From IMG/VR virus record IMGVR_UViG_3300047483_000490, positions 15,636 through 79,635 of that record: a DNA stretch of 64,000 nucleotides, one strand, 5' to 3'. The notes under the pieces are model-generated. The model searched no databases and was not told the DNA's origin. It saw only the letters and a list, made by a program, of their open reading frames with translations. A program made the translations under genes and the position numbers. This stretch comes from a virus. Of the stretch, positions 2,943 through 43,280 are shown one piece after another; position 1 is the stretch's first letter, and every line of letters begins with the position of its first letter.

Positions 2943-4061
2943 ATGGAAAATCAAAATTCAGTTTGCTATGTAGCAAAAATTAACGAGATTAAAGCAATTG
3001 AAGGAGCTGACAATATTGAATTGGTAGTTGCTGGAGGTTGGAATGCTATTACAAAAAAAGGTGAATTCACCGTAGGTTCATTAACTGTAATTGCAACAAC
3101 TGACGCAGTTATTCCTGAAGCACTTTCTGAAAAGATGGGTGTTACTAATTATTTACGTAAAGGTCAAAGAGTTAGAACTGTAAAACTAAGAGGTGTTTAC
3201 TCTGAATGTTTGATTATTCCAATAGTTCATATCAAGGCTTCTAGTATTAGAGAAGGTCGCGACTTAATGGAAGAATTAGGCATCACTAAATTCGAGCCAC
3301 CGGTTAAACAAATCCAATTAACTTCTGGCAAAAAGATTCGTTACAGTGAAAATCCTAACTTTAAAATCTATTACAAGTTTCCAAACTTGAAAAATGTTGC
3401 AGGTATGTTTACTGAAGAGAACGCAGTTCAAATCACTCGTAAATTACATGGAACTAACGCACGATATGGAATTGTAAAACGTAAGAAGATAGGATTACTT
3501 ACAAAACTTAAAGCTTTTTTTGGTGACAAATGGGCTGGATATGAATTTGTAGTTGGTTCTCATAACGTTGAAAAAGGTTCTGAATCACAAGGATTCTATG
3601 ACACTAACGTGTGGTATGAAATTGCAGACAAATATAAGATCAAATCTAAGTTGTGGAATTTTATTAAAGAGACTGCAACACCTGAAGGAATTGGTGAAGG
3701 TTTTTGTATCTATGGTGAAATCTACGGTGCAGGAATTCAAAAGAATTACGAGTACGGTCTTACTGAAATTAAGTTTTCTATGTTTGACGTAACTCTTAAT
3801 GGTGATTATGTACCAACCGGATGGACAGAAATGTATGCAAATGAATTAGGATTTGATCACGTTGAAGTTCTTTACGATGGCTTATGGTCTCAAGAAATTC
3901 AAGATCGTTTTGTCTTTAACAACTTTATTGAAGGCACCAAAGTGCCACATGAAGGAATTGTAATCAAACATGTCTCTGGTGAAAGAAGTAAAGTAGCTAA
4001 GGTTATTAACCCAGACTATTTAATCTACGGTGAAAAAAATAACGTAGGAGATTCTCACTAA
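2943..4061 (+). CDS. RNA ligase, DRB0094-type (N-terminal OB fold plus Rnl2-like nucleotidyltransferase)
   Basis: Motif I KLHGTN, YGEIYG, FDV and EGIVIK; N-terminal IEGADNIE. Confidence 0.9.
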   Translation: MENQNSVCYVAKINEIKAIEGADNIELVVAGGWNAITKKGEFTVGSLTVIATTDAVIPEALSEKMGVTNYLRKGQRVRTVKLRGVYSECLIIPIVHIKASSIREGRDLMEELGITKFEPPVKQIQLTSGKKIRYSENPNFKIYYKFPNLKNVAGMFTEENAVQITRKLHGTNARYGIVKRKKIGLLTKLKAFFGDKWAGYEFVVGSHNVEKGSESQGFYDTNVWYEIADKYKIKSKLWNFIKETATPEGIGEGFCIYGEIYGAGIQKNYEYGLTEIKFSMFDVTLNGDYVPTGWTEMYANELGFDHVEVLYDGLWSQEIQDRFVFNNFIEGTKVPHEGIVIKHVSGERSKVAKVINPDYLIYGEKNNVGDSH

Positions 4062-5264: not shown

Positions 5265-5349
5265 GCCCAGGTGGTGTAATGGTAGCCACGAAGGACTTAA
5301 AATCCTTTGGGACGAAGGTCCCGTGCCGGTTCGAGTCCGGCCCTGGGTA
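5265..5349 (+). tRNA. tRNA-Leu(UAA)
   Basis: Cloverleaf; AAGGA-CTTAAAA-TCCTT anticodon arm; long variable arm. Confidence 0.95.
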
Positions 5350-5359
5350 CTATTTAAAT

Positions 5360-5432
5360 GCCTCCGTAACTCAGCAGGTAGAGTGCAACATTTGTAATGT
5401 TGATGTCATCGGTTCGAACCCGGTCGGAGGCT
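5360..5432 (+). tRNA. tRNA-Thr(UGU)
   Basis: CAACA-TTTGTAA-TGTTG anticodon arm; GCCTCCG/CGGAGGC acceptor. Confidence 0.95.
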
Positions 5433-5443
5433 CAAAACATTAT

Positions 5444-5518
5444 GGCTCCATAATTAAAGGGATATAATGCATCTCTTCTAAAGATGACTTGGGAGTTCGA
5501 ATCTCTCTGGAGCTACCA
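5444..5518 (+). tRNA. tRNA-Arg(UCU)
   Basis: CATCT-CTTCTAA-AGATG; encoded CCA. Confidence 0.9.
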
Positions 5519-9186: not shown

Positions 9187-9752
9187 ATGAATAATTTTAA
9201 AACTTTAGTCATGTCTTTACAAAAAGATGTAGATCGAAGAGATTGGATGAATTCTATTAAATCTAAGATAGGTTTAGATTTTGAATTCTTTGATGCATTT
9301 GCACCAAATCAACTGACAGATTCTCATAAACATTTTTTTAGAACCACAGACTTTCACATTTGGAATATTAATGAAGATGCAGTTAAGGCTACATTTGTAA
9401 GTCATATGTTAATGTGCCAATATGCATCGATAACAATACAAATCTATTAATTATAGAAGACGATATTGATATTGTAAAATCAGTAGATTGGAATAGTGTT
9501 GATTTTACAGAATTTGACATATGGAATTTAACTGCTAAAAAAGTTTCATGCTTTGCTTATTTCATTTCAGTCGAAGGTGCTATCAAACTATTAAAAAGAT
9601 TAAATAGAGTTGAGATAACACAAGCTTATGATTGGGAACTTTCAAAACTAGATGATAGCTTTAAAGTAAAAGAAGAAAAAGAACCAATATTCATACAAGT
9701 TGATAGATTTGAATCTAACATAGCACCAAATGGCTATGAAAAACTAGTCTAA
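9187..9752 (+). pseudogene. GT25-family glycosyltransferase split by a 1-nt frameshift near 9425
   Basis: 5' ORF has SL...DRR, FEFFDA and SH; 3' ORF has LIIEDD and AYFISVEGA.KL. Confidence 0.75.
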
Positions 9753-9764
9753 ATATATAAATCA

Positions 9765-10580
9765 ATGAGAACATTTAAATACATTTTTGTCTGTGGTACA
9801 TCTTTTACAGCCGGTGGAGGATTTGAAGATAAAAATAGCAACAGACCAATAATACAAAAACACATGGACGAGCCTATTCCAGCAAAAATGGAAGATTGCG
9901 CTTGGCCAGCTTTTTTACAAAAACAAATAGATCCTAAAATCAAAGTTTATAATCTAGCTTTGCCTGGGGCTGGTGTTGAATATTTAATAAGAACTACTGA
10001 AGAATGGATGGCTAAAAATCCAGATAAAGTTAAAGACACTTTATTTTTATTAGAAAATTCAGGTTATGGTAGAATTGAATTATGGGATGTCGAGCTAGAC
10101 AGATATATTGTCTGTAATTGGGACTATGCTATTAGAAAAGATAAATTTTGTGCATCCGCTCACAGTGGAAAGTACTGGGAAGATTCTCACGAAACAGCAC
10201 AAAGGATAATAAATAAAGAACCACTTATAGAAACTTGGTTAAATACGTTCGGTGAACCTATGAAAATGGTAGAAGATCTTAACAATAGATTTTTTAATTT
10301 TCTATGTAAGCTAAATTATAAAGGCATTGATTTTAAAGTTTTTGGTGAACCTTTAAATGATCCAGAACTACATAAAGAAGATGTGTTTTTAAAGAATAGA
10401 TTAGCATTAATGGTTGGAGATAAAGAGATCAATCACATTCATGATTTTTTAATTATCAACCATTTACAGATAAAACAATTAACTAACGGAGAATGTGATG
10501 ATTTTCACGCAACGTTAGAAGGAAATAGAGTTGTAGCACAAGTTTACTATAACGAATTAAAAAAACATTACGATTTATGA
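9765..10580 (+). CDS. SGNH/GDSL-like hydrolase or acyltransferase, paralog 2
   Basis: GTSFTAG and DFH.TLEGN; shares CAWPAFLQKQIDPKIKVYNLAL with 8374..9183. Confidence 0.7.
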   Translation: MRTFKYIFVCGTSFTAGGGFEDKNSNRPIIQKHMDEPIPAKMEDCAWPAFLQKQIDPKIKVYNLALPGAGVEYLIRTTEEWMAKNPDKVKDTLFLLENSGYGRIELWDVELDRYIVCNWDYAIRKDKFCASAHSGKYWEDSHETAQRIINKEPLIETWLNTFGEPMKMVEDLNNRFFNFLCKLNYKGIDFKVFGEPLNDPELHKEDVFLKNRLALMVGDKEINHIHDFLIINHLQIKQLTNGECDDFHATLEGNRVVAQVYYNELKKHYDL

Positions 10581-12244
10581 TACAGTTAGGTATTTCAGCA
10601 TTTTATCATGACTCTGCTGCATGTATTGTAAAAGACGGCAAGGTTTTAGCAGCAATAGAAGAAGAAAGATTTACAGGCATTAAACATGATTTTAGCTTTC
10701 CTAAAAAATCTATTGAGTGGTTATTTGACTATTTAAATTTAACAATAGAAGATATTGATGAAGTTTGTTGGTATGAAAATCCAGAGCTTAAAAAACAAAG
10801 GGTTCTTGCTACTTTTGACAAACATTTTTTCAAGTCATTCTTTAATAGAATTAAATTTTTAAAGAGACATAAAATAGAAGGCAACGTTAATGCTTTATTA
10901 GAACAACATCTAAATTACAATGGCAAAGTTACTCTTGTAGATCATCACATCTCACATGTCATGTTTGCATATAAGACTTCACCATTTGATGATTGTGCAA
11001 TCGTTTCTATCGATGGTGTAGGTGAGTGGGATACGATGACAGTTTCTCAAGTTAAAGATGACAAGCTAATAAAAATTTCAGAGACAGTTTTTCCGCACTC
11101 TTTAGGTATGTTTTACTCAACATTCACTTCATTTTTAGGTTTTAAACCAAACGAAGGTGAATATAAAGTAATGGGTTTAGCACCTTATGGAAATCCAGAA
11201 GTTTATTACCCAGAATTGTTTGCCTTATTTACACTTTTACCAGAAGGTAGATTTTCTATCGATCAAAAATATTTTACGTGGGAATACTCAGACAAAATCA
11301 TGTTCAAAGACACATTGTGTGAATATTTAAATATGGCTCCGAGAACTAAAGATGCTCCAATGGAACAATGTCATAAAGACTTAGCAGCCTCGGTACAAAT
11401 GGTATATGAACGTATTTTTATGCATATTTTAGAATTTGCAAAAGAACAAACCGGAAGCAATAATTTATGCCTTAGCGGTGGTTGTGCATATAATGGAGTT
11501 GCAAATAATAAAGCTTACAGATTGTTCGAACATATTTGGGTTCCCTTTGCCCCATCAGATTCAGGGTCAGCTATTGGTGCATGCCTAGCATCATATCCTG
11601 GTAAAACGGCAGATAATACGTCTCCATATTTAGGCTCAGAATTCAATCTATGGGACATTCATACAGCTATTACTTATTTTCAATTTGAGATTGATGTAAG
11701 AGAATTGACTGAAGAAGAACTAATAGAAAAAACGGCAACAGCTATTAACGAAAACAAAGTTATAGGCTGGTGTCAAGGTAGAATGGAATTTGGAGCTAGA
11801 GCTCTTGGAAATAGATCAATTCTTGCTAGTCCATTGGACCCAGAAATGAAGTCTAGACTAAATAGAGTTATTAAAAAGAGAGAAGGCTTTAGACCTTTTG
11901 CACCTTCGTGTATTGAAGAAGATGCTGCTAAATTCTTTGAAATTCAAGACACTGTGCCTTATATGAATCAAGTGATGCAAGTTAAAAAAGAATGGACATT
12001 ACCTTCTATTACACACGCAGATGGTTCAGCTAGAGTACAGACAGTTAACAAAAATCAAAACGATAAATACTATAAGTTACTTAAAAAATTAGGTGATATT
12101 TCAGGATTTCCAATATCTTTGAATACTTCATTTAATTTTAAAGATCAAACCATAACTGCAACACCACATGATGCAATTGAAAGATTTTTAGATTGTGAAA
12201 TGGATGTTTTAGTAATTAATAACTATTATATAACAAAACTATGA
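10577..12244 (+). CDS. Carbamoyltransferase (NodU/CmcH/TobZ family)
   Basis: GISAFYHDSAA, EEERF, HHISH, DGVGE, EYKVMGLAPYG, GARALGNRS, LNTSFN. Confidence 0.95.
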   Translation: MIQLGISAFYHDSAACIVKDGKVLAAIEEERFTGIKHDFSFPKKSIEWLFDYLNLTIEDIDEVCWYENPELKKQRVLATFDKHFFKSFFNRIKFLKRHKIEGNVNALLEQHLNYNGKVTLVDHHISHVMFAYKTSPFDDCAIVSIDGVGEWDTMTVSQVKDDKLIKISETVFPHSLGMFYSTFTSFLGFKPNEGEYKVMGLAPYGNPEVYYPELFALFTLLPEGRFSIDQKYFTWEYSDKIMFKDTLCEYLNMAPRTKDAPMEQCHKDLAASVQMVYERIFMHILEFAKEQTGSNNLCLSGGCAYNGVANNKAYRLFEHIWVPFAPSDSGSAIGACLASYPGKTADNTSPYLGSEFNLWDIHTAITYFQFEIDVRELTEEELIEKTATAINENKVIGWCQGRMEFGARALGNRSILASPLDPEMKSRLNRVIKKREGFRPFAPSCIEEDAAKFFEIQDTVPYMNQVMQVKKEWTLPSITHADGSARVQTVNKNQNDKYYKLLKKLGDISGFPISLNTSFNFKDQTITATPHDAIERFLDCEMDVLVINNYYITKL

Positions 12245-12363
12245 TAAAGAAATTGATAACTTGGATTCAAGTAAAATTAGCAGAACGCAGAAAAAAGAAA
12301 GCATTTAAAGCCTCTTTAGAACGTTATAAAAAACAAGATCCCTTTAATTATAAGAATTTTTAA
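12241..12363 (+). CDS. 40-aa small protein ending DPFNY (DUF5989-like carbamoyltransferase neighbour)
   Basis: ATGA overlap with upstream stop; MIKKLITWIQVKLAERRKKKAFKASLERYKKQDPFNYKNF; absent from ORF track. Confidence 0.65.
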   Translation: MIKKLITWIQVKLAERRKKKAFKASLERYKKQDPFNYKNF

Positions 12364-15564: not shown

Positions 15565-15686
15565 GGTCGAGTGGTGTAATTGGTAACACAACAGGCCTTA
15601 GAGAGCAAGCGGTTCGATTCCACAAAGCTTAATGTAACTGGTAGTTACACATCCTGTTGATGTAGGTTCGAATCCTGCCTTGGCCA
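15565..15686 (+). ncRNA. tRNA-like RNA with ~55-nt insert in the anticodon loop
   Basis: GGTCGAG/CTTGGCC acceptor, D-arm, ACAGG/CCTGT stem, canonical T-arm. Confidence 0.75.
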
Positions 15687-18432: not shown

Positions 18433-18497
18433 TGAGATGTGGCGCAGCGGTAGCACATAGAATCAATTGGTCGTAGGTTCGAATCCTACCATCTCAG
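18433..18497 (+). ncRNA. tRNA-like RNA lacking an anticodon arm
   Basis: TGAGATG/CATCTCA acceptor, D-arm and T-arm intact; only ~10 nt where the 17-nt anticodon arm should be. Confidence 0.75.
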
Positions 18498-40901: not shown

Positions 40902-40958
40902 AGGATGCTTCCAGCAAATTTACAAAACTTTATATGGAAAAGCAAAACATAGCATCCT
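40902..40958 (+). ncRNA. stem-CAGCAA RNA copy 1 (minimal form)
   Basis: AGGATGCT/AGCATCCT closing stem, TCCAGCAA, internal CTTT-ATATGGA-AAAG hairpin. Confidence 0.65.
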
Positions 40959-41033
40959 GTTTTTTAAAATTTAAGAGTATGGACGGAGCAGCAGAAATTC
41001 TAGATAGCAGAAGTCTCAGGTCCTAACTCTCTC

Positions 41034-41106
41034 GGGGCTGTGGTGAAATTGGCTATCATCACAGATTTGCATTCTGTAGTTCTCGGATCGTAACCGGGCA
41101 GCTCCA
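41034..41106 (+). tRNA. tRNA-Ala(UGC) with atypical T-loop
   Basis: G3:U70; ACAGA-TTTGCAT-TCTGT; T-loop ATCGTAA. Confidence 0.88.
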
Positions 41107-41108
41107 CT

Positions 41109-41140
41109 AAAAGACTTACATTAATTTGTAAGTCTTTTTT
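41109..41140 (+). terminator. Intrinsic terminator
   Basis: AAAAGACTTACA/TGTAAGTCTTTT plus T-tract. Confidence 0.85.
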
Positions 41141-41197
41141 ATTTATATTAATAGGGCTCGATTGCTATATTCTCCACATTTAATAGATATATAGAAT

Positions 41198-41956
41198 ATG
41201 GAAGAAATAATAAAATGCGAAGAGTGCGGAGAATTATTTATAAATAAAAAGATCAAAGCTAATCATGTACGATGGAAACACAGAGATCAAACTTTTTATA
41301 AAAATAAAGCATCTGGTATATTAAAAGAAGCTTACGCCGATAAACACGGTAAAATTATCACTGAAAATGTCATATGTTCTAATTTAAAATGTAATAAGAC
41401 TTTTTCGATAGAATATAGAACTGGCAAAAAGAAAGAAAAAAACTTCTGTTCTAGATCTTGTGCTAATTCAAGAGGATCTTTGTCTACTGAAACTAAACAA
41501 AAGATAGCAGATTCGTTAAAAAAAGAATTTAAACTTTGTACATGTAAAAATTGTAATAAGCAGTTTGAACACAGCAAAGAAAAATTATATTGTTCTAATG
41601 AATGCTATTCTAATTATAGAAAAAAAGATAGAACAGATCTTCGTAATTATAGATTAGAAGCCTCGTTTAATTTTAATATTTTTGACTATCCTGAAGAATT
41701 TGATTTAGAATTGATAAAAAAATACGGGTTTTATTCAGCTGCAAACAGAGGATGTAATTTAAATGGTATTAGCAGAGATCATGCATATAGCTGTAAAATG
41801 GGATTAATTAACAATATTGACCCAAAAATTTTAAGTCATCCTGCAAATTGTATATTAATGAGACATAATGATAATATTTCCAAACATTCTAATTCATCTA
41901 TTACAATCGAAGAATTATTAATAAAAATTGACAAATGGGATAAAAAATATAAATAA
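41198..41956 (+). mobile_element. Zinc-finger HNH-type homing endonuclease
   Basis: Multiple CxxC, FCSRSC and YCSNEC repeats; SRDH...HPANC....H..N.SK. Confidence 0.8.
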
Positions 41957-41980
41957 GGTTCGAATCTGGGTAGCTCCACT
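41957..41980 (+). repeat. Orphan 3' fragment of tRNA-Ala (T-loop plus acceptor 3' strand)
   Basis: GGTTCGAATCTGGGTAGCTCCACT versus GGATCGTAACCGGGCAGCTCCACT at 41085..41108. Confidence 0.8.
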
Positions 41981-41981
41981 G

Positions 41982-42013
41982 AAAAGGTTTCATTTAACGA
42001 TGAAACCTTTTTT
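41982..42013 (+). terminator. Intrinsic terminator
   Basis: AAAAGGTTTCAT/ATGAAACCTTTT plus T-tract. Confidence 0.85.
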
Positions 42014-42052
42014 ATTTAATAAGTATAATCATTAATTAAAAAATTAAACAAC

Positions 42053-42229
42053 ATGCAAAATTTAAATCAGATCGAAGAGATTCTTAACTCAATCAAAGAA
42101 GACGCAACTAAATTTTTCGAAAAAGGAAACAAAGCAGCTGGAACTAGAGTTCGTAAAGCAATGCAAGAAATCAAAGCATTAGCGCAAGCAGTTCGTACTG
42201 AAGTTTCAGAGAAAAACAAAGAAGCTTAA
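42053..42229 (+). CDS. Histone H1-like protein (Hc1 family, Bacteroidota type), 58 aa
   Basis: KFFEKGNKAAGTRVRKAMQEIK.LAQ..R; absent from ORF track. Confidence 0.85.
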   Translation: MQNLNQIEEILNSIKEDATKFFEKGNKAAGTRVRKAMQEIKALAQAVRTEVSEKNKEA

Positions 42230-42301
42230 TTTTTTTTGAAACAAACACTCTTTATTGAGTATAAACTTTACAATTAAATTTTAAAACTAAACAAACACAA
42301 A

Positions 42302-42466
42302 ATGAAAAAAGTATTTTTCGCAATCGCAGCTATCGTAGCAACAATCTCAATCGCTTCTTGTGGTAATGGAGCAACTTCAAAAACTGAAACTACTGATTCT
42401 ACAGCAGTTCAAGTTGATTCTACGCAAGTAGACACAGTTAGTGTTGACACTGTAACTGTAAAATAA
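42302..42466 (+). CDS. 54-aa lipoprotein with repeated D(S/T)(T/V) motifs
   Basis: MKKVFFAIAAIVATISIASC-GNGATSKTETTDSTAVQVDSTQVDTVSVDTVTVK; absent from ORF track. Confidence 0.8.
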   Translation: MKKVFFAIAAIVATISIASCGNGATSKTETTDSTAVQVDSTQVDTVSVDTVTVK

Positions 42467-42474
42467 ATCATTAA

Positions 42475-42615
42475 AGGTTTCTTACAGCAATTAAAATTCT
42501 ATAGGAACTGGTATCGAAAGATGTGTAGGTTCGAGTCCTACCTCTCCAACAAATTTTAAAATAATTGGAGAGTGGTGAAATTGGTAGACACGCTAGTCAG
42601 AAAAAACAGAAACCT
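42475..42615 (+). ncRNA. stem-CAGCAA RNA copy 2 containing a circularly permuted tRNA-Leu (YrlA-like)
   Basis: AGGTTTCT/AGAAACCT; order is variable arm, T-arm, CTCTCCA, linker, TGGAGAG, D-arm. Confidence 0.85.
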
Positions 42616-42625
42616 GAAAATTATT

Positions 42626-42684
42626 GGAATACCTACAGCAAGCTTACCAAACTTTGACTTTTACTCAAACCAAATGCGTATTCC
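42626..42684 (+). ncRNA. stem-CAGCAA RNA copy 3 carrying a tRNA-Lys(UUU)-like anticodon hairpin
   Basis: GGAATAC/GTATTCC; TACAGCAA; TTTGA-CTTTTAC-TCAAA. Confidence 0.7.
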
Positions 42685-42701
42685 GTTAAATTATTTTATA
42701 A

Positions 42702-42836
42702 AGGATGGTTCCAGCAACACATACAAATTAGGCTGTTAACCTCGTGGTCGTCGGTTCGAACCCGGCCTTTGAACACCGCCTTAAGTGGCACGTTCAGAGT
42801 AGCTCAGTTGGTAGAGCACGTACAAAAGCCCATCCT
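42702..42836 (+). ncRNA. stem-CAGCAA RNA copy 4 containing a circularly permuted tRNA-Asn (YrlA-like)
   Basis: AGGATGG/CCATCCT; AGG-CTGTTAA-CCT, T-arm, CTTTGAA, linker, TTCAGAG, D-arm TAGCTCAGTTGGTAGAGC. Confidence 0.85.
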
Positions 42837-42924
42837 GATAAATTAAAAGTGTGTCTTGGTCCGCTCTGGCGAAAGTTAACGACAAGGTCCCGGTTGGCAG
42901 AAGGCCTCTGATCCAACCCAAAAC

Positions 42925-42999: not shown

Positions 43000-43192
43000 G
43001 TAGATTTTTTAGCGTGGCGTGGATTCAGCAGACTTGTTAAATCTTAAAAGAAACAAGATAAGGTAATAAGAATCAAGTTTGACAGTGATTATCTTTGAAC
43101 AACTGTACTGCTTTGGTGATCGATCGCCCGTTCCCAGTATCGAATGAAAACTCGTAAGGCAAGATGCAAAACTGTAGCGCATCACCAAAGTT

Positions 43193-43230
43193 AAAAGGGA
43201 ACCCGTGCACATGGTTCCCTTTTCTTTTTT
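43193..43230 (+). terminator. Intrinsic terminator
   Basis: AAAAGGGAACC/GGTTCCCTTTT plus T-tract. Confidence 0.85.
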
Positions 43231-43280
43231 AGATGAAACAAATTGACTTAAATAAATATAACAACTAAAATATATTTTAT

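Follow-up and report, generated by a model that had tools for sequence, protein, structure and literature searches.

Why would a phage encode small RNAs in which the parts of a transfer RNA (tRNA) stand in permuted order, and do so beside RNAs that have the same ends and hold no tRNA at all? The question is raised by a stretch of 64,000 nucleotides (nt), called the window here, which comprises bases 15636-79635 of the 79.6 kilobase (kb) IMG/VR virus record IMGVR_UViG_3300047483_000490 (G000; estimated completeness about 30%), and in particular by four elements, E1 to E4, that lie between window positions 40902 and 42837. The window is phage-like, with its genes all on one coding strand, and the genome that hosts the elements is that of a jumbo phage. 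Ro60 and its Y RNAs are a classic RNA-surveillance particle and a human autoantigen, and the bacterial Ro60 particle uses tRNA-shaped Y RNAs for a purpose that is still unclear. The analysis described below indicates that E1 to E4 are probably members of a widespread family of RNAs, apparently undescribed, that act as Y-RNA-like adaptors of a Ro60 paralogue and carry tRNA mimics as cargo.

What the four elements have in common is termed the handle. It consists of a stem of 7-8 base pairs (bp) that joins the RNA ends, an unpaired U-N-CAGCAA directly 3' of the 5' strand, with two or three unpaired bases between that strand and CAGCAA, and a G after the 3' strand, such that the 3' end reads ..CC(U/A)G. 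The original prediction had described four elements with such a closing stem and an invariant CAGCAA, and all of them can be read from the sequence on the + strand, their closing stems being four different sequences that are each perfectly complementary. Two are short. E1 (40902-40959, about 58 nt) has the stem AGGATGCT/AGCATCCT (40902-40909 and 40951-40958), CAGCAA at 40912-40917, an A-rich variable region and its terminal G at 40959, and is followed on the 3' side by a T-run and then a tRNA-Ala gene; E3 (42626-42685, about 60 nt) has the stem GGAATAC/GTATTCC (42626-42632 and 42678-42684), CAGCAA at 42636-42641 and its terminal G at 42685. The other two enclose permuted tRNA-like cargo: E2 (42475-42616) within the stem AGGTTTCT/AGAAACCT (42475-42482 and 42608-42615; CAGCAA at 42485-42490), with a tRNA-Leu-like body, and E4 (42702-42837) within AGGATGG/CCATCCT (42702-42708 and 42830-42836; CAGCAA at 42712-42717; terminal G at 42837), with a tRNA-Asn-like body.

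A family of four proved too small a count, as this genome holds at least six members. The fifth and sixth lie outside the window, 29 kb upstream of E1-E4, where an open reading frame (ORF) of 476 amino acids (aa) at G000:C1:10544-11974 matches the Pfam families DUF7788 (3.5e-54) and DUF2828 (1.5e-34). A short handle RNA, E5 (G000:C1:11991-12049), begins about 17 nt past the stop codon of this gene, a long one, E6 (G000:C1, about 12052-12298), comes next, with the stem GGATCG/CGATCC, the strand GUA-CAGCAA and a cargo of about 225 nt that matched none of the Rfam families, and a strong intrinsic terminator closes the series. The DUF2828 gene, E5 and E6 look like one transcription unit, and the gene of a sigma-70-type factor (9491-10090) is found just upstream of it.

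A covariance model, R1, was built from 28 short handle RNAs, 25 of which were taken from other phages. In this genome R1 scored E5 at 60.6 bits, E1 at 48.1 bits (expectation value, E, 5e-10) and E3 at 40.0 bits (E 7e-8), while E2 and E6 were weak matches; when it was run over the 64 kb window with filters off, no further short member appeared, and besides E1, E3 and the 5' part of E2 nothing in the window beat E 0.04. In the 28-member alignment, compensatory changes occur in five of the seven closing-stem pairs, and the invariant features are pair 2 (G:C), pair 5 (U:A), U-N-CAGCAA and the 3' G. No conserved structure was seen in the variable region of these 28, so that the small hairpins that had been proposed inside E1 and E3 are weakly supported. 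A loose scan of the genome for CAGCAA with any 7-bp stem was no better than chance (24 matches, against 9-23 in shuffled sequences) and was replaced by the covariance model and by a strict handle scan, which found four matches in the 79.6 kb, all on the + strand (E1, E2, E4 and E5), against 0-2 in shuffles, and missed E3 solely owing to its CCG ending.

Orthologs of all of E1-E4, including both short elements, are present in the closest complete relative, a 256 kb genome with terminal repeats and 89% DNA identity to the window region (G001), and E3 also has an ortholog in a second relative (G002), where it lies 3' of the Hc1 gene and has a different, compensated stem, AGGATAC/GTTATCCT. In phage genomes and distant loci the E-values of R1 reach 1e-13. 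The covariation in homologs on which the original prediction had staked the family is thus found, in the handle stems and in the cargo stems alike; the handle RNA family is real, and its stem covaries.

The association of handle RNAs with DUF2828 genes is not peculiar to this phage. The DUF2828 protein has 283 relatives in IMG/VR, and in most of the 80 loci that were examined, at 59-94% protein identity, the gene is followed, 15-400 nt downstream, by a short handle RNA on the same strand, one small inserted ORF separating the two in some of them; the handle stems covary between these loci. A distant set comprised 33 DUF2828 loci from metagenome-assembled genomes (MAGs) of many phyla, at 33-70% identity. 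Here R1 gave 33 matches with E<1 in 25 loci, every one (33/33) on the strand of the gene, mostly no more than 400 nt from it and never beyond about 2 kb; their stem sequences diverge widely, with the changes compensated. When three whole phage genomes (850 kb in sum) were scanned, R1 matched three or four times in each at E<0.01, and each had one match at most about 4 kb from the DUF2828 gene, directly adjoining it in two of the three; the remaining matches sit in clusters of RNA genes.

The protein itself offers a second line of evidence. An AlphaFold2 model built on 20 homologs (predicted local distance difference test score, pLDDT, 78) was compared with the PDB using Foldseek, and the top 13 structures were all Ro60/TROVE proteins (9kop, 2nvo, 1yvr, 9l5y and others), with E from 4e-8 to 2e-5, a template-modelling (TM) score of about 0.55 and nearly full-length alignments. 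They comprise structures of the Ro60 proteins of Xenopus, humans and Thermus phage phiLo and of Deinococcus Rsr; next in the ranking came isolated von Willebrand factor A (vWA) domains. The DxSxS sequence of the metal ion-dependent adhesion site (MIDAS) is invariant among the 20 homologs, at residues 271-275, and in a comparison with PDB sequences the vWA part weakly resembled a TROVE protein (E 0.55). The DUF2828/DUF7788 protein is therefore predicted to fold as a Ro60-type ring of helical repeats followed by a vWA domain with a MIDAS. The prediction that no Ro60/TROVE gene lies in the window is literally true, but a gene with this predicted Ro60 fold lies 29 kb upstream in the same genome. 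DUF2828 proteins occur in phages, bacteria, protists, fungi and plants; a protein atlas search with the phage protein returned viral DUF2828 clusters only and added nothing. Literature searches produced only unrelated mentions of DUF2828, with no paper on a DUF2828-handle RNA system, and searches on Ro60-like or TROVE-like terms found nothing relevant.

E2 and E4 each carry a complete cloverleaf as cargo, permuted and with a loop-closed acceptor, which is the design of the bacterial YrlA Y RNAs. That each encloses a whole tRNA in permuted order, Leu(UAG) in one and Asn(GUU) in the other, was borne out by re-joining the halves in silico: with the 5' half put before the 3' half, and the handle and linkers left out, ARAGORN called tRNA-Leu(UAG), given as Leu(tag), from E2 and tRNA-Asn(gtt), with a perfect 5-bp anticodon stem, from E4. 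The cloverleaf of E2 (42500-42598, + strand) opens with an anticodon-loop remnant, UAUAGGA (42500-42506), and the 3' strand of the anticodon stem (42507-42511), and continues with a long variable arm, the T-arm (42525-42541), the acceptor 3' strand (42543-42549), a 15-nt loop that closes the acceptor (42550-42564), the acceptor 5' strand (42565-42571), the D-arm and the 5' strand of the anticodon stem (42593-42597), after which a linker leads back to the handle. In E4 (42730-42820, + strand) an intact anticodon hairpin, AGG-CUGUUAA-CCU (42730-42742, with GUU at 42735-42737), comes first and is extended by upper anticodon-stem pairs between 42743-42744 and 42819-42820; the T-arm (42750-42766), the acceptor 3' strand (42767-42773), a 19-nt acceptor-closing loop (42774-42792), the acceptor 5' strand (42793-42799) and the D-arm (42802-42817) lie between. 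In E4 the exit to the handle lies in the 5' strand of the anticodon stem, where the chain departs between positions 28 and 29, so that all five anticodon-stem pairs can still form. The expectation that anticodon-loop sequence is kept holds for E4, whose whole anticodon arm is intact; in E2 the loop is opened and the remnant is what is left of it.

Both cargoes have changed under constraint. Between E2 and its G001 ortholog, an A:U pair has become G:C in the anticodon stem and another in the variable arm, and a U:A pair has become C:G in the D stem, while the anticodon-like triplet is UAG here and UAA there. For E4, IMG/VR was searched for the pattern CAGCAA followed by an Asn anticodon arm. 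The 76 matches were mostly chance or ordinary coding DNA, about eight distinct sequences among them having the handle architecture; as the pattern required the Asn loop, an enrichment of Asn over other anticodons cannot be read from them. RNAs of the E4 type were found in three further lineages (L159, L210 and L225), with the handle stems AAGATTA, TAGACGC and TAGACAC, the T stems GTCGG, ATGGG and GTTGG, four unrelated acceptor stems and an upper anticodon stem that also varies by lineage, all of these differences being compensated, and with acceptor-closing loops of 3, 4, 6 or 19 nt. Every E4-type stem covaries across L159, L210, L225 and L177, a statement read by eye from the sequences rather than a tool count, as MAFFT misaligns the acceptor region. 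The only complete genome among the matches to the E4 pattern encodes DUF2828.

The tRNA genes of the phage itself bear on where such cargo might come from. That E2 and E4 are recent copies of the phage's own tRNAs was considered and rejected, as they are only 73-85% identical to canonical tRNAs. At window positions 18433-18497 lies an ortholog of a G001 tRNA-Asn(gtt) gene that has no anticodon arm (65 nt; 39.4 bits with the Rfam tRNA model, no ARAGORN call), and about ten G001 tRNA genes, a second tRNA-Asn among them, are missing from the syntenic cluster here, which leaves E4 as the only RNA in the record with an Asn anticodon loop. At 15565-15686, the Rfam tRNA model matches across 122 nt (50.5 bits) where ARAGORN reports nothing, suggesting a tRNA gene with an insertion of about 45-50 nt.

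Across the loci that were examined, the handle was found to close a wide range of cargo. Some of its RNAs are cargo-free, as are E1, E3 and E5, and in two loci (L104 and L115) it closes a T-arm-like hairpin. Two copies in L111 carry a permuted T-arm, closed acceptor and D-arm with no anticodon arm, and score 42.6 and 47.1 bits with the YrlA model, while L136, L114 and L137 have the D-arm, anticodon arm and T-arm in normal order, the handle stem replacing the acceptor (40-46 bits with the tRNA model). The E6-type cargo is a conserved domain of about 180-250 nt. In L131 the arrangement is turned inside out, with a hairpin-closed handle inside the anticodon region of a tRNA (796-904), which is a circular permutation of the E2 design. 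This last locus, on a Micavibrio MAG contig, also has, upstream of its DUF2828 gene (L131:500-1350), an array of tRNA genes with two to three handle RNAs, and within the array a freshwater-1 RNA (RF02979) at 1007-1068, whose 82.7 bits are above the gathering score. Two further handle RNAs, from other phages (L157:2827-2954 and L219:9146-9216), apparently hold as cargo only the Asn-type anticodon loop CUGUUAA with no tRNA body, on a stem of 5 bp in L157 and about 2 bp in L219; the latter is a complete 200 kb genome that encodes DUF2828.

The surroundings of E1-E4 contain several other stretches of note. A weak handle-like sequence, GGAC-GGAG-CAGCAG...GUCC, lies at 40980-41026, 5' of the tRNA-Ala gene, and about 200 nt of non-coding DNA after a tRNA-Gly gene (43000-43232) start with GUGGAUU-CAGCAG, possibly a degenerate handle, have a 3' half that folds above shuffles (z -2.4) and end in a strong terminator. 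Between E4 and that tRNA-Gly gene, at 42850-42924, is a conserved structured stretch with no Rfam match; it is also found in G002, after tRNA-Leu(taa), with one helix compensated (GGTTGG/CCAACC to GGTAGG/CCTACC). A block of about 900 bp (41056-41956) that is missing from the close relative G001 holds a new 3' part for tRNA-Ala, along with a terminator and an ORF of 252 aa (41198-41956) with several Cys pairs, an HNH-like tail and no Pfam match, and the old 3' end of tRNA-Ala, GGTTCGAATCTGGGTAGCTCCAC, is left at 41957-41979; the block looks like an insertion of the homing-endonuclease type that brought its own copy of the tRNA end. The window as a whole contains 16 tRNA genes called by ARAGORN, out of a phage total of about 27, all bacterial-type, and there is an RNA ligase gene, a 372-aa ORF at 2943-4061 (PF09414, 62 bits) near a tRNA-Leu/Thr/Arg cluster (5265-5518), which is kept in the relatives G001, G002 and G005. 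A sigma-70-type factor, an Hc1 histone-like protein, a DNA ligase and intrinsic terminators complete the picture of the record.

Could E2 and E4 simply be genes for the tRNAs that they resemble? Permuted tRNA genes are known from the red alga Cyanidioschyzon merolae and from other algae, in which the 3' half is encoded first and a linker runs across the acceptor ends, and they mature via a circular intermediate, with the splicing endonuclease acting at a bulge-helix-bulge motif. E2 and E4 have the same order of halves and a linker that bridges the acceptor ends, and one could picture a ligated circle being cut at the acceptor loop to yield a functional tRNA-Leu and tRNA-Asn, the more so as the re-joined halves are full cloverleaves with standard anticodon loops, selection acts on every tRNA stem, the phage encodes an RNA ligase and its tRNA-Asn ortholog at 18433-18497 has lost the anticodon arm, with the second Asn gene gone. 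Yet the ends are held by a handle that is also present on the cargo-free E1, E3 and E5 and on the non-tRNA E6 and so is no signal for the processing of tRNAs in particular, and nothing points to maturation into a tRNA. The exit of the E4 chain inside the anticodon stem would call for an exact excision, neither acceptor 3' strand carries an encoded CCA, and the L111 relatives keep the T-arm, acceptor and D-arm with no anticodon arm to decode with. The complete genome of G001, moreover, has canonical tRNA-Asn (two copies) and tRNA-Leu(tag) genes besides its E2 and E4. With the handle shared by non-tRNA RNAs and the canonical genes retained in G001, functional permuted tRNA genes are very unlikely. 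It is harder still to see in these elements similarity by chance, or functionless tRNA pseudogenes in decay, a scarcely credible explanation even though the permuted modules are 73-85% identical to canonical phage tRNAs and the folding z-scores are weak, given that every stem has compensatory changes across lineages, that the covariance model reaches E 1e-13 and that its matches in distant loci are all on the strand of the gene.

Two other explanations accept the elements as real and differ about what binds them. The handle might be a processing or stability module, an end-clamping stem for a host RNase or some other phage protein, with its nearness to DUF2828 genes a by-product of shared islands of RNA genes. 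Handle RNAs do usually lie among genes for tRNAs, transfer-messenger RNA and other small RNAs, and E1-E4 are far from the DUF2828 gene; but in loci of many phyla that share only the DUF2828 gene, at 33-70% identity, the handle stays adjacent and on the same strand, whole genomes have few matches and one of them is at most about 4 kb from DUF2828 each time, the unpaired hexamer and the two base pairs that never vary have the look of a site that a protein recognizes, and the DUF2828 protein has the predicted fold of an RNA-binding ring. A mere processing role is accordingly unlikely. The elements might also be ordinary YrlA RNAs (RF02553) bound by a canonical Ro60, since E4 matches the YrlA model at 30.6 bits (E 6e-4), as do its G001 ortholog (34.5 bits) and the two RNAs of L111, all with the same permuted layout. 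These scores, which in the relatives run from 34.5 to 47.1 bits, are nevertheless all below the gathering score of 69 and come only from the tRNA-like module, E1, E2 and E3 had no match in the YrlA search, and at gathering thresholds Rfam finds nothing at E1-E4. A strong YrlA match for all four would have made this a known family; what was found is the one sub-threshold match of E4. The Ro60-binding stem of YrlA has a GNCGAA(N0-1)G strand (PMC4201824), in place of which all members have (U)UNCAGCAA, with its CAGCAA, after the 5' stem, and the gene that adjoins E5 and E6 encodes DUF2828/DUF7788 rather than a TROVE-domain Ro60. That these are ordinary YrlA RNAs is highly improbable.

The interpretation of E1-E4 as Y-RNA-like adaptors of a Ro60 paralogue has points weighing against it too. 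E1-E4 are 29 kb from the DUF2828 gene, and their link to it rests on the handle that they have in common with E5 and E6. The likeness of the protein to Ro60 rests on a predicted fold at a TM score of about 0.55. The rest of the genome had been proposed as a place to look for TROVE and RtcB, and neither was found, the candidate paralogue with DUF2828 turning up instead: Pfam TROVE (PF05731) has no match in the 79.6 kb record, which is about 30% of the genome (G001 was not searched for TROVE), and RtcB is absent from this genome and three relatives, two of these four genomes being complete. The figure of 99.5% paired for the stem is inflated, as members were partly chosen by requiring it, and independent evidence for the stem comes from positional orthology and from covariance-model matches in distant loci. 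Folding energy alone fails to set the elements apart, the z-scores of E1-E4 being a modest -2.5, -1.6, -0.9 and -2.2. Even so, a predicted ring-plus-vWA protein, adjacent RNAs with paired ends, tRNA mimicry and the setting of tRNA-rich phages together make a Y-RNA-like ribonucleoprotein the best reading, and the idea of a Y-RNA-like scaffold with swappable tRNA cargo, put forward from the sequence at the outset, gains support from the covarying handle, its linkage to the predicted Ro60 fold, the modular cargo and the sub-threshold YrlA matches.

How might such a particle work? Ro60 binds Y RNA on the outer face of its ring and takes the ends of misfolded RNA into the hole. By analogy with the way in which a Y RNA attaches to Ro60 through its conserved stem, the DUF2828 ring would hold the RNA by its handle, and the variable cargo would be an adaptor. 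Cargo with the shape of a tRNA could recruit, or compete for, proteins that recognize tRNAs, with host anticodon nucleases and enzymes of tRNA repair or modification as candidate targets, and the particle may take part in tRNA surveillance or protection during infection. The cargo-free E1, E3 and E5 would serve to occupy the DUF2828 protein or to gate it. The role of decoy, sensor or repair substrate that had been suggested for these RNAs is a matter of inference.

The nearest known system is that of Ro60 with the Y RNAs YrlA and YrlB (PMC4201824), in which, as here, the gene of a ring-plus-vWA protein is adjoined by genes of small RNAs, the RNA ends pair into a conserved stem, several RNAs serve one protein and at least one RNA per genome has a tRNA-like domain in the order T-arm, closed acceptor, D-arm. 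That domain is present in E2 and E4 and not in E1 and E3. Ro60 and Y RNAs also occur in tRNA-rich phages, among them jumbo phages (PMC7824862) and the phage of phiLo Ro60 (PMC12135203). There are clear differences as well. DUF2828/DUF7788 is not seen by Pfam TROVE, and its likeness to Ro60 is at the level of the predicted fold; the conserved RNA module is a short stem with an unpaired CAGCAA instead of the Ro60-binding helix with its GNCGAA strand; many handle RNAs are cargo-free, while E4 retains a whole anticodon arm; and the handle system lacks the RtcB gene that usually adjoins bacterial Ro60/YrlA. These features point to a second branch of the Ro60/Y RNA system, with a different protein family, a simpler handle and modular cargo that can be as elaborate as a whole tRNA mimic with its anticodon arm intact, E2 and E4 being among the clearer whole-tRNA cases. 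This would give a large domain of unknown function, DUF2828, a candidate function, and it makes the purpose of tRNA mimicry on a Ro-type particle a question that can be pursued in a tractable phage system.

A second comparison leads to the amoebae. The only Rfam model besides those of YrlA and tRNA to pick up these RNAs is Dicty_Class_I_RNA (RF01414), whose three best matches in the genome are E1 (28.7 bits), E2 (24.1 bits) and E5 (17.9 bits), with 27.6-30.2 bits in relatives, all short of the gathering score of 41.5. Class I RNAs measure 42-65 nt and combine a short terminal stem with an 11-nt motif by its 5' strand, a variable body and a CUGU 3' end; they have no known mechanism and have been reported as exclusive to Dictyostelia (PMC7919456; bioRxiv 10.1101/2020.04.05.026054). 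Within the phage consensus GGUUCC-UUACAGCAA stands the 11-mer of the RF01414 consensus, CCUUACAGCAA, which is matched at 11/11 positions by E5, 10/11 by E2, 9/11 by E1 and E3 and 8/11 by E4. In both groups the stem joins the ends, the rest is A-rich and variable, the length is 55-65 nt and there are many copies per genome; both start with G and end in CUG(U), the phage RNAs in CCUG. E1, E3 and E5, at 58-60 nt, have the terminal stem, motif and length of Class I RNAs; in E2 and E4 the cargo adds to the length. All sampled dictyostelids, moreover, encode a DUF2828/DUF7788 protein of about 500 aa, which in D. discoideum is DDB_G0281913 and aligns with the phage protein along its full length at 34% identity (E 2e-80), and UniRef names the Dictyostelium homolog a 'TROVE domain-containing protein'.

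Against this stands the fact that DDB_G0281913 is not among the four proteins reported to be pulled down with Class I RNA, which were Rnp1A/CIBP, GuaB, NdkC and DDB_G0281243 (PMC7919456); DDB_G0281243, which has no name, was considered as a candidate for the DUF2828 protein and rejected. The link between Class I RNAs and DUF2828 is therefore one of sequence and architecture only. The handle RNAs are hosted by a phage rather than an amoeba, the record being phage-like with a sigma-70-type factor and bacterial-type tRNA genes, and there is no Dictyostelium upstream sequence element (DUSE) promoter; Class I RNAs, for their part, have not been reported with tRNA-like cargo. From the sequence likeness, it is a tentative suggestion, somewhat short of an even chance, that handle RNAs and Class I RNAs belong to one kind of RNA and that both are Y-RNA-like partners of DUF2828 Ro60 paralogues. 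It would supply a concrete candidate for the protein partner of the unexplained Class I RNAs, whose function, if it holds, would run via the amoeba protein DDB_G0281913, and the DUF2828-handle particle would then be an ancient ribonucleoprotein found in phages, giant viruses, bacteria and many protists.

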